Sequence record: ON528736
Strand: one strand, 5' to 3'
From: Shigella phage ESh26
Length of the DNA stretch: 64,000 nucleotides
The position numbers and the translations under genes are program-made. Positions within the stretch are counted from its first letter, which is position 1; each line of letters opens with the position of its first letter. A model generated the notes under the pieces. That model was not told the origin of the DNA. It made no database searches and worked only from the letters and a program-made list of their open reading frames with translations. Shown in pieces: positions 58,704-59,724 of the stretch.

Positions 58704-58779
58704 TGGTCGAGGCAGTAGGGATCGAACCTACGACCTAGGACTTAGAAGGTCCTTGCTCTTCCTTCTGAGCTATGCCCCG
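58704..58779 (-). tRNA. tRNA-Arg (anticodon TCT)
   Basis: Manual cloverleaf: acceptor CGGGGCA/TGCCTCG, loop CTTCTAA, T-loop TTCGATC, encoded CCA. Confidence 0.85.
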
Positions 58780-58783
58780 TAAT

Positions 58784-58859
58784 TGGGGTGACCGATGGGG
58801 GTCGAACCCATGACTACGAGAATCACAATCTCGAGTTCTACCAACTGAACTACGGCCAC
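58784..58859 (-). tRNA. tRNA-His (anticodon GTG)
   Basis: Manual cloverleaf: acceptor GTGGCCG/CGGTCAC, loop TTGTGAT, discriminator C, encoded CCA; no G at -1. Confidence 0.75.
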
Positions 58860-58972
58860 ATTAATACCTACTCCAACAATCAAGATGTCTTCACACGAAA
58901 TTAAGAGAAGAGTGATCAGTTCAACCCTATAATCGCGTCAAGTAGATATTAATGTGACAGTTGTCACAAATT

Positions 58973-59047
58973 TGGCGGACGTGATAGGATTCGAACCTAT
59001 AACCAATCGCTTAACAGGCGATCGCTCTGCCATTGAGCTACACATCC
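58973..59047 (-). tRNA. tRNA-Asn (anticodon GTT)
   Basis: Manual cloverleaf: acceptor GGATGTG/CACGTCC, loop CTGTTAA, T-loop TTCGAAT, encoded CCA. Confidence 0.8.
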
Positions 59048-59051
59048 AAAT

Positions 59052-59138
59052 TGGTGGGGAGTGATGGAGTCGAACCACCCGAGTCGCAATGACAATGGAT
59101 TTACAGTCCACACCGCTACCTCTACGGGATAACTCCCC
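59052..59138 (-). tRNA. tRNA-Tyr (anticodon GTA), long variable arm
   Basis: 87 nt; acceptor GGGGAGT/ACTCCCC, loop CTGTAAA, T-loop TTCGACT, encoded CCA. Confidence 0.75.
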
Positions 59139-59151
59139 TTAATTCTTAATT

Positions 59152-59226
59152 TGGTGGCCCTGGGTGGAATTGAACCACCATCTGGCGATTATGAGTCGCT
59201 TGCTTGAACCTTCCAGCTACAGGGCC
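59152..59226 (-). tRNA. tRNA with anticodon CAT (Ile-lysidine type as in T4, or Met)
   Basis: Acceptor GGCCCTG/CAGGGCC, loop CTCATAA, T-loop TTCAATT, encoded CCA; position after tRNA-Thr. Confidence 0.75.
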
Positions 59227-59227
59227 T

Positions 59228-59303
59228 TGGTGCTGATTGACGGAATCGAACCGCCGACCTTCTCATTACAAGTGAGTTGCTCTACCTACTGAGCTAAATC
59301 AGC
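59228..59303 (-). tRNA. tRNA-Thr (anticodon TGT)
   Basis: GCTGATTTAGCTCAGTAGGTAGAGC...CTTGTAA...GGTTCGATTCC...CAATCAGCACCA. Confidence 0.9.
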
Positions 59304-59308
59304 AAAAC

Positions 59309-59398
59309 TGGCGGAGGCGATAGGATTTGAACCTATGAGTCGCCGGAGCGACTGCCGGTTTTCAAGACCGGTGCATTAAACCACTCTGCCACGCCTCC
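59309..59398 (-). tRNA. tRNA-Ser (anticodon TGA), long variable arm
   Basis: 90 nt; GGAGGCGTGGCAGAGTGG...CTTGAAA...GGTTCAAATCC...CGCCTCCGCCA. Confidence 0.9.
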
Positions 59399-59400
59399 AG

Positions 59401-59474
59401 TCTCCATACAAGGATTTGAACCTTGGACCTCCTGATCCCAAATCAGGCGCTCTACCAAACTGAGCTACACGGAG
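59401..59474 (-). tRNA. tRNA-Pro (anticodon TGG), CCA not encoded
   Basis: CTCCGTGTAGCTCAGTTTGGTAGAGC...TTTGGGA...GGTTCAAATCC; 2 nt from tRNA-Ser (dimeric precursor as in T4). Confidence 0.88.
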
Positions 59475-59484
59475 TAAATTAAAT

Positions 59485-59558
59485 TGGAGCGGATAATGAG
59501 AATCGAACTCACATCATCAGATTGGAAGTCTGAGGTAATACCATTATACGATATCCGC
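59485..59558 (-). tRNA. tRNA-Gly (anticodon TCC)
   Basis: GCGGATATCGTATAATGGTA...CTTCCAA...GAGTTCGATTCTC...CCGCTCCA. Confidence 0.9.
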
Positions 59559-59563
59559 AAATT

Positions 59564-59650
59564 TGGTGCGAGAAGTGGGACTCGAACCCACAAGGAAATC
59601 ATTCCGCAGCATTTTAAGTGCTGTGCCTTTACCAATTTGGCCATTCTCGC
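59564..59650 (-). tRNA. tRNA-Leu (anticodon TAA), long variable arm
   Basis: 87 nt; GCGAGAATGGCCAAATTGGTAAAGGC...CTTAAAA...GGGTTCGAGTCCC...CGCACCA. Confidence 0.9.
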
Positions 59651-59651
59651 G

Positions 59652-59724
59652 CTGGGAATAAAGGACTCGAACCTTTGCATCCTGGAATCAAAATCCAGTG
59701 CCTTACCAACTTGGCTAATTCCCA
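59652..59724 (-). tRNA. tRNA-Gln (anticodon TTG), CCA not fully encoded
   Basis: TGGGAATTAGCCAAGTTGG...TTTTGAT...GGTTCGAGTCC...ATTCCCAG; abuts tRNA-Leu. Confidence 0.88.

Follow-up and report, generated by a model that had tools for sequence, protein, structure and literature searches.

A putative segB-less, T2-type allele of the T-even tRNA operon in Shigella phage ESh26

This report concerns a cluster of tRNA genes on the minus strand of a 64 000-nucleotide (nt) stretch of Shigella phage ESh26 DNA (record ON528736), referred to below as the window. Eleven co-oriented genes lie at positions 58704–59724, and we put at about 0.88 the probability that they are the Tequatrovirus tRNA operon in a segB-less form of the T2 type, an operon that would serve codon supply, hold a tRNA-Tyr useful in counter-defence, have been subject to cassette exchange and include tRNA-His as a separate module. 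The phage is a T4-like coliphage, closest to JLBYU22, SH7 and Sf22. Judged from its sequence, the cluster qualifies as a segB-less T2-type allele of the T-even operon on several features: it shows synteny with trna.2-4 on one side and rnaD-rnaC on the other, it has no segB, its CAT, Tyr, Asn and Arg tRNAs are of the T2 type, tRNA-Ser is followed by CCAG, and no open reading frame (ORF) separates the tRNA with anticodon CAT from tRNA-Arg.

tRNA genes of the cluster

ARAGORN, applied to the whole 64-kb window, returned 11 tRNA genes, all of them in this interval and on the minus strand. The Rfam model RF00005 independently found the same 11 genes, ten with scores of 59.9–74.1 bits and tRNA-Tyr with 30.2 bits; all are at or above the gathering threshold of the model (29 bits), and neither ARAGORN nor RF00005 above threshold placed any further tRNA in the window. 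A sequence-only reading had already proposed eleven tRNAs by inspection, and the identities, order and end coordinates (58704 and 59724) that it gave are the same in ARAGORN. It had named rejection of the Tyr, Asn or His cloverleaves by covariance models as the result that would refute it, and the covariance model accepted all three.

In transcription order the cluster opens with tRNA-Gln(UUG) (59651–59724, 67.4 bits), tRNA-Leu(UAA) (59564–59650, class II, 64 bits) and tRNA-Gly(UCC) (59485–59558, 65.8 bits). These are followed by tRNA-Pro(UGG) (59400–59474, 66.8 bits), tRNA-Ser(UGA) (59309–59398, class II, 62.6 bits) and tRNA-Thr(UGU) (59228–59303, 72.9 bits), the last of which lies 1 nt ahead of the tRNA with anticodon CAT (59152–59226, 59.9 bits). 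The remainder consists of tRNA-Tyr(GUA) (59052–59138), tRNA-Asn(GUU) (58973–59047, 74.1 bits), tRNA-His(GUG) (58784–58859, 62.8 bits) and a T2-type isoacceptor of tRNA-Arg(UCU) (58704–58779, 66.1 bits); in DNA letters the anticodons are ttg, taa, tcc, tgg, tga, tgt, CAT, gta, gtt, gtg and tct. All 11 form regular cloverleaves (7-bp acceptor stem, 7-nt anticodon loop with U33, T-loop), and the discriminators fit the assigned amino acids (A73 for Tyr, G73 for Asn, C73 for His, G73 for Gln and A73 for Pro). In tRNA-Tyr the D-stem contains one mismatch and one G.U pair and the variable arm has 3 bp. Its low RF00005 score is due to this weak D-stem and the class-II variable arm, and at a permissive threshold its best match within the clan was tRNA-Sec (34.4 bits) because of the long variable arm.

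Reading of the sequence showed that CCA is encoded in 9 of the 11 genes (as CCAG in tRNA-Ser), the exceptions being Gln and Pro. The former ends in ATTCCCA, the discriminator G and a single C, with G1 of tRNA-Leu directly next; the latter ends in TGGAGA, of which the final A is the discriminator, and CT, with G1 of tRNA-Ser directly next. The earlier observation that CCA is not encoded in these two genes, which directly adjoin Leu and Ser, was therefore sound. By analogy with T4, the eleven co-oriented genes would be transcribed as polycistronic precursors, including dimeric Gln-Leu and Pro-Ser precursors and a closely spaced Thr-CAT pair; host RNase P and 3' trimming enzymes would cut these, and the host CCA-adding enzyme would complete Gln and Pro. 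Dimeric tRNA precursors are established in T4, and the Gln-Leu and Pro-Ser junctions of the window are base for base the same as those of T4.

The sequence-only reading had left the CAT tRNA as either Ile or Met. The anticodon stands, and Ile2 is now favoured by likeness to E. coli ileX (76.3% identity, against 63.0% with metT), with which the gene shares an identical GCGACTCATAATCGC anticodon-arm core and the GGCCC/GGGCC acceptor end, including C4-G69 and C5-G68. These two pairs and the anticodon arm are reportedly the determinants of TilS (work of Ikeuchi et al. in 2005). The tRNA is not an initiator, since it has a G1-C72 pair and lacks the GGG/CCC anticodon stem. On these sequence features it is most likely a lysidine-type tRNA-Ile2 reading AUA, like the Ile tRNA of T4. 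Its homologues are labelled 'Met' in T2 (PMC2330249) and in T6 (PMC13096335), and annotation pipelines use the same label.

Sequence relationships of the tRNA genes

The syntenic locus of T4 consists of Gln, Leu, Gly, Pro, Ser, Thr, Ile, segB, Arg, rnaD and rnaC. It thus has 8 tRNAs against 11 here, exactly the excess of three that had been proposed, which leaves Tyr(GTA), Asn(GTT) and His(GTG) as the extra genes. The companion proposal, that the first seven genes and Arg match the T4 set, holds for the anticodons but not throughout for the sequences. Pairwise identity to T4 is 100% for Gly (which is also 100% identical to that of T6), 98.9% for Leu, 98.7% for Pro, 96.7% for Ser, 96.1% for Thr and 87.8% for Gln, but only about 61% for two of the eight: the CAT tRNA is 61% identical to T4 Ile, and Arg(TCT), at 60.8%, is not alignable with T4 Arg. 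Identity of tRNA-Arg(UCU) to E. coli argU is 73.1%. It is T2 that holds the close relatives of this part of the cluster, with identities of 100% for the CAT tRNA (the 'Met' of T2), 100% for Asn, 98.8% for Tyr and 97.3% for Arg; tRNA-Tyr is also 97.7% identical to that of T6.

Phages T2L, RB1 and RB3 are without segB and have Met, Tyr, Asn and Arg tRNAs (Brok-Volchanskaya et al. 2008, PMC2330249); in T2L tRNA-Ser is followed by CCAG, whereas CCA is absent in T4 (PMC2330249). The preferred cleavage site of SegB, shown for T2L, is the tRNA-Asn gene, and in T4 x T2L co-infection SegB drives replacement of ~1250 bp of the tRNA region (PMC2330249). The Asn gene of the window is identical to that of the T2 record and contains GGTTCGAATCC ... 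CCAA, and by analogy with T2L it is predicted to carry the preferred SegB target. The differences from T4 would come from cassette exchange, Ile-segB-Arg in T4 standing where ESh26 has CAT-Tyr-Asn-(structured RNA-His)-Arg-ORF116, with the Asn gene as the predicted preferred site of SegB.

As a side observation, tRNA-Gln differs from the T4/T6 allele only in the anticodon arm. The anticodon stem is CUGGA/UCCAG instead of the UAGCA/UGCUA of T4 and T6, paired in both versions, and the anticodon loop is UUUUGAU (as in E. coli glnU) where T4 has CUUUGAC, that is, positions 32 and 38 are changed from C to U. Changes at anticodon-loop positions such as 32 and 38 have been proposed to affect recognition by anticodon nucleases (PMC10264068).

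Codon usage and roles of the additional tRNAs

Codon usage was compiled for 90 ORFs of the window (16.9k codons) and for 20 annotated late structural genes of JLBYU22 (8.5k codons). The host was represented by 42 long ORFs from three E. coli K-12 regions (17.5k codons), a small sample not weighted by expression, so that the ratios given here are approximate. For the eight T4-type tRNAs, the cognate codons ending in A are used more by the phage than by E. coli, mostly with a larger excess in late genes: AGA 4.9–7.9-fold, TCA 2.1–2.6-fold, GGA 1.6–2.7-fold, ACA 1.6–2.6-fold, ATA 1.6–2.5-fold, TTA 1.8–2.1-fold, CCA 1.3–2.2-fold and CAA 1.3–1.6-fold. The eight anticodons would accordingly read A-ending codons whose use in this AT-rich phage exceeds that in E. 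coli 1.3- to 8-fold. TAT is enriched 2.1-fold and AAT 2.1–2.3-fold, and Tyr and Asn residues are 1.3–1.5 times commoner, so that tRNA-Tyr and tRNA-Asn also fit supply and demand and would serve codons used ~2-fold more by the phage. His codons, unlike those of the other ten tRNAs, are not enriched (CAT 1.2-fold in window genes and 0.65-fold in late genes; CAC 0.48-fold and 0.26-fold). The comparison of late genes with the host that the sequence-only reading had suggested as a check thus yields enriched codons for ten of its tRNAs and none for His. The most enriched amino acid is Lys (AAA 2.0-fold), for which there is no phage tRNA.

Several points weigh against the interpretation of the cluster given at the outset. 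His residues reach only 0.88 times the E. coli frequency in window genes and 0.48 times in late genes, and the His gene is missing the encoded G at position -1 (G-1) on which E. coli histidyl-tRNA synthetase (HisRS) relies; with its codons unenriched and its G-1 missing, a simple role in providing more tRNA for translation is doubtful for His. tRNA-Tyr cleared the RF00005 threshold only marginally, and some annotation pipelines label this gene tRNA-OTHER or Val. No promoter was located, and the host codon sample has the weaknesses already described.

Among the other explanations of the extra tRNAs, the one that survives best, although we consider it rather improbable, is that they are mainly a counter-defence reserve in which phage copies replace or outnumber cleaved host tRNAs. 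Of the four queuosine-family tRNAs (GUN anticodon), which are targeted by known tRNases, the extra genes supply three; colicin E5 cleaves the Tyr, His, Asn and Asp tRNAs. Phage tRNAs that restore infection in the face of PARIS, OLD and PrrC provide a general precedent, and the poor fit of His to codon demand is also in favour of this explanation. For Tyr there are experiments in both T6 (PMC13096335) and T5 (PMC11555353). The variable arm is where Septu cuts tRNA-Tyr (Chihara et al. 2026, PMC13096335); the T6 tRNA-Tyr was detected by Northern blot, its overexpression or amplification restores infection under Septu, T6 becomes more sensitive to Septu when its tRNA region is deleted, and T4, which is without Tyr, fails to escape (PMC13096335). 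The tRNA-Tyr of T5 counters retron-Eco7 (PMC11555353). That of the window would likewise replenish the pool under defences that cleave tRNA-Tyr (Septu, retron-Eco7 PtuAB), as was shown for the 97.7%-identical T6 tRNA. However, the literature gave no defence that targets tRNA-Asn or tRNA-His during T-even infection, and Asn matches codon demand well. Moreover, Septu cleaves the T6 tRNA-Tyr too (PMC13096335), so that rescue operates by dosage and not by resistance.

Somewhat lower, and in our estimation unlikely, stands the explanation that the difference from T4 is largely neutral turnover of cassettes through homing endonucleases such as SegB and recombination of tRNA genes, reflecting history more than selection. 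The variable segment is indeed bounded by conserved flanks; T4, T6, T2, teqskov and ESh26 each have a different combination of genes; SegB cuts inside tRNA genes and replaces ~1250 bp of the T2L region (PMC2330249); and homing-endonuclease genes adjoin the His module in Mineola and CW742. Neutral turnover is, on the other hand, hard to reconcile with intact cloverleaves and compensatory substitutions across genera, with the conservation of the 11-gene arrangement at 98–100% identity in at least 186 records, and with the decay of the remnants after gene loss in teqskov. In these phages of other genera, no more than a few hundred bases separate the His module from the SegB-like gene of Mineola (1–70 of the fetched locus) and the homing endonuclease of CW742 (629–890), which agrees with mobility of tRNA-region cassettes.

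More unlikely again is that Tyr, Asn and His purely supplement codon reading, an AT-rich phage needing more decoding than its host offers. The excess of TAT and AAT codons (2.1–2.3-fold) and of Tyr and Asn residues agrees with this, and the eight T4-type tRNAs follow the same logic; but His fails on both codons and on residues, Lys is the most enriched amino acid and yet is without a phage tRNA, and the T6 tRNA-Tyr has a demonstrated counter-defence effect (PMC13096335). In the reading that we prefer, an operon combining codon supply, Tyr counter-defence and cassette exchange, tRNA-His and its 94-nt leader would be a separate module, inserted relative to T2, with a role that codon demand does not explain.

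A structured RNA directly upstream of tRNA-His

Between tRNA-Asn and tRNA-His there is a gap of 113 nt (58860–58972), not mentioned in the sequence-only reading. The spacer contains a conserved and apparently undescribed structured RNA, supported by covariation and modelled as an element of 94 nt (58860–58953, minus strand) directly 5' of tRNA-His. RNAalifold, run on 15 distinct versions of the element (95 columns), predicted a three-way junction. In this model the closing helix P1 consists of 14 AU-rich bp (58953–58940 with 58873–58860), and its 3' strand ends at position -1 of tRNA-His; because P1 ends exactly at G1 of the tRNA, the -1 nucleotide is paired. P2 has a conserved base (58936–58934 with 58897–58895) and a variable apical domain of two interchangeable types, and P3 is a 4-bp hairpin (58889–58886 with 58878–58875).

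In the 15-version alignment 98.9% of cells are paired, compared with 40–50% when the partners are slid, the covariation score is 0.287 (at most 0.123 for slid partners) and 5 pairs show double-sided changes; in none of 500 shuffles was the observed percentage paired, number of double-sided cells or covariation score reached. A covariance model built from this alignment found one copy in the 64-kb window (58860–58953, 106 bits) and none in the T4 and T6 loci. Among 715 kb of other fetched loci it detected four much more divergent members (36–45 bits), on ~170-kb T4-like contigs, which retain a 14–15-bp closing helix flush with G1 of tRNA-His and display new compensatory pairs and a hypervariable interior. 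The alignment extended with these members, which leans towards the structure because it was fitted to the model, has 96.9% of cells paired (38–55% slid), a covariation score of 0.335 (at most 0.148 slid) and 9 pairs with double-sided changes, again with 0 of 500 shuffles. Several conserved G.U pairs are possible only on the tRNA-sense strand, the antisense strand scores at most 20 bits compared with 94–113 bits for 16 close members, and in every intact copy the helix is bounded by the first base of tRNA-His.

It is very improbable that the spacer instead acts at the DNA level, as a promoter, a set of operator palindromes or a site of recombination or homing, or that it is a decayed tRNA pseudogene: although it lies in a recombination-prone region and contains the palindromes TGTGACA/TGTCACA, TGATCA and ATCTTGAT, such readings do not account for helices that are 97–99% paired (38–55% in slid controls) with 9 double-sided pairs never matched by shuffling, for the sense-strand bias of the G.U pairs and of the scores, or for the fixed boundary at tRNA-His, and the gap has neither a sigma-70-like promoter on the sense strand nor an ARAGORN tRNA or Rfam match (tRNA included) at E≤10.

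The totals of the sigma-70 scan were as in the shuffled expectation. Inspection by eye gave no T4 late (TATAAATA) or MotA-box motif in the gap, and a candidate MotA box upstream of Gln (TGCTTA, ~59743–59748) was dropped because the implied start site would lie inside the tRNA. A hidden or degenerate tRNA in the gap was also considered and rejected on the ARAGORN and Rfam results, the latter from an Rfam 15 search of 2 kb with permissive filters that gave nothing in 58860–58972. BLAST matches to the gap sometimes bear the label 'tRNA-Ser': in COW86c and SonariX this reflects a 2-nt overlap with the neighbouring gene, and in teqskov an unrelated Ser gene.

The spacer alone occurs in 355 phage records, nearly all of which leave it unannotated, and the element is present in 13 metagenome contigs as well; exact pattern searches of GTDB species representatives gave 0 matches. 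It spans Tequatrovirus, Jiaodavirus, Karamvirus and Gelderlandvirus. tRNA-His with ~70–105 nt of upstream sequence matches T4-like phages of Klebsiella, Enterobacter and Erwinia at 83–91%, and in these the upstream neighbour of the His module is tRNA-Gln, not Asn. Relative to T2, a segment of ~190 nt made up of a hairpin, the element and His is inserted between the CCAAAT of Asn and the start of Arg. The element persists without tRNA-His in teqskov (1498–1592 of the fetched locus), in Salmonella phage STP4-a (407–500, likewise) and in one metagenome contig (1907–2000, likewise), where only GTG or GTGG of the tRNA is left; the last P1 base pairs are broken in the teqskov and metagenome copies.

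The hairpin, a palindrome GTGACA-AC-TGTCAC (58954–58967, minus strand), is located between Asn and the structured element, and Karamvirus-type copies conserve its TGTCAC half. The GUCAC of the hairpin repeats the sequence of the 3' acceptor strand of tRNA-His (GGUCAC) and can therefore pair with the GUGGC with which the tRNA begins; by the energy model only, GUCAC-GUGGC pairing extends P1 to ~19 bp at the cost of the acceptor stem. Both types of P2 apical domain show a 6-nt self-complementary loop, UGAUCA or UCAUGA (alignment columns 34–44, ~58920–58910), and the P3 loop carries UCAUGA or UCUUGA (columns 70–76, ~58885–58879). These loops might pair with one another (loop-loop or kissing interactions), in one molecule or between two; in P2-P3 pairing the two types of central domain would use different registers.

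tRNA-His without an encoded G-1

tRNA-His is 77.9% identical to E. coli hisR and has an E. coli-like acceptor stem with C73, followed by an encoded CCA. The nucleotide at position -1 (58859/58860) is T, where hisR encodes G-1, so that the gene does not show the bacterial-type arrangement of an encoded G-1 opposite C73 in an 8-bp acceptor stem. tRNA-His genes matching a D-loop/anticodon-loop pattern were surveyed in viral contigs and fetched loci. Among the 97 with intact acceptor stems, 66 are of the G-1/C73 type, 1 is G/A and 30 are T-1/C73. The 3' strand of P1 precedes all 30 of the T-1/C73 genes, and the covariance model gave no match to the element at loci of the G-1 type. Compensatory changes in the anticodon and T stems of tRNA-His across phages show that selection maintains the gene as a tRNA.

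Recognition by E. coli HisRS relies heavily on the -1 residue and its phosphate, and with U at -1 RNase P tends to cut normally, at +1. Mature tRNA-His is therefore expected to be without G-1 and poorly charged, unless the leader changes its processing or recognition. The literature that was searched gave nothing relevant on a tRNA-His leader or on a phage tRNA-His without G-1. Our tentative proposal, to which we give slightly less than even odds, is that the element is an undescribed class of structured phage RNA mechanistically coupled to the atypical tRNA-His. The leader could direct unusual 5'-end maturation of the tRNA, or gate it through GUCAC pairing with the acceptor 5' strand; it could be a structural stand-in for the missing -1 residue in recognition by HisRS; it could be set free as a stable small RNA with its own function, comparable to the species 1 and 2 RNAs of T4, its palindromic UGAUCA/UCAUGA loops possibly serving loop-loop pairing; or, as a fourth reading, it could act as a decoy.

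A widespread group of T4-like phages keeps a tRNA-His without G-1, always behind a covarying RNA and without excess demand for His. An explanation of the His module would bear on ways of bypassing tRNA-His identity and RNase P site choice, as well as on the old question of phage tRNAs that codon usage does not explain; Tyr, one of the extra tRNAs, already has a published role in counter-defence.

Occurrence of the eleven-gene arrangement

A query of 1.25 kb around the cluster matched 977 phage records, 253 of them with one match that spans 80% or more of the query. The best match (99.7%) was Escherichia phage JLBYU22 (Tequatrovirus), whose record annotates the same 11 genes at the corresponding position, with the trna.2-4 ORFs on one side and e.8 on the other. 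The segment from Tyr through Asn, spacer and His to Arg is covered to at least 80% in at least 186 records, at 98–100% identity. Yersinia phage fPS-65, described with 11 tRNA genes compared with 8 in sister phages (PMC7917993), matches the cluster region at 98%. The eleven-tRNA arrangement is therefore already known and ordinary, a frequently annotated T-even locus, and since it is found in hundreds of records the proposal of eleven tRNAs amounts to a correct reading of a known locus. The cluster itself adds nothing new, and its main use is to show, as a clean positive control, that tRNAs can be found by hand.

The JLBYU22 record labels one gene (2875–2951 of the fetched locus) 'tRNA-His(gtg)'. 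An anticodon switch was rejected as the explanation: the gene is Asn, and the label is an annotation error, because the sequence is identical to that of the window and has the anticodon GTT. The Tyr gene is apparently labelled 'tRNA-OTHER' in ZN18 and 'tRNA-Val' in UAB_60, to go by the feature lists (MN716856, OL656107).

Region downstream of the cluster

An ORF of 116 amino acids (58337–58687, minus strand) lies between Arg and the rnaD homologue, a place where T4 has none. It matches phrog_3355, a family of unknown function (E 6e-53), gave no Pfam match and is identical to a T2 ORF at 114 of 117 positions. Its stop codon overlaps the start of the rnaD-like sequence. The homologue of T4 rnaD (species 2 stable RNA) occupies 58222–58337 (103/117 identical, 88%) and that of rnaC (species 1 stable RNA) 58076–58214 (137/139 identical, 99%), both on the minus strand. 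Both fall below every Rfam gathering threshold, the rnaC region giving only chance-level matches (e.g. tRNA-Sec, 16.6 bits, E=6.5). A hairpin resembling an intrinsic terminator follows on the same strand (58002–58025; 10-bp stem with 7 GC pairs, then TTTTT), and is the probable end of the tRNA/stable-RNA transcription unit.

Comparison with known systems

The T4 locus occupies the same site (trna.2-4/ipI to e.8) with the same gene order and with rnaD and rnaC downstream. ESh26 differs from it in being without segB and in having Tyr, Asn, His, the 94-nt structured RNA and the 116-amino-acid ORF. T4 has G-TAA after Ser where ESh26 has CCAG, and the CAT tRNA of ESh26 also has its CCA encoded, unlike its T4 counterpart. 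The CAT and Arg tRNAs are different isoacceptor sequences in the two phages, and the anticodon arm of Gln differs.

T2/T2L is likewise without segB, has CAT, Tyr, Asn and Arg tRNAs that are 97–100% identical to those of ESh26, has CCAG after Ser and carries the same ORF after Arg. It is without the His module, the ~190 nt between Asn and Arg being additional here, and the T2 record PV648363 has an ORF at the place where Thr sits in ESh26; T2 thus has 9–10 tRNAs and not 11. The T6 locus consists of Gln, Leu, Gly, Thr, Met, Tyr and segB, with segB beside a tRNA-Tyr that is 97.7% identical to the one described here, and is without Pro, Ser, Asn and His. Amplification of tRNAs in T6 (PMC13096335) depends on SegB, which is absent from ESh26.

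The His leader is comparable to the species 1 and 2 RNAs of T4 (rnaC and rnaD) in that these, too, are small structured non-tRNA RNAs (~100–140 nt) directly abutting a tRNA within a phage tRNA transcription unit. It shares no sequence similarity with them, it lies 5' and not 3' of its tRNA, and it differs from them in combining a hypervariable interior with a conserved closing helix and in being tied to a tRNA-His without G-1.

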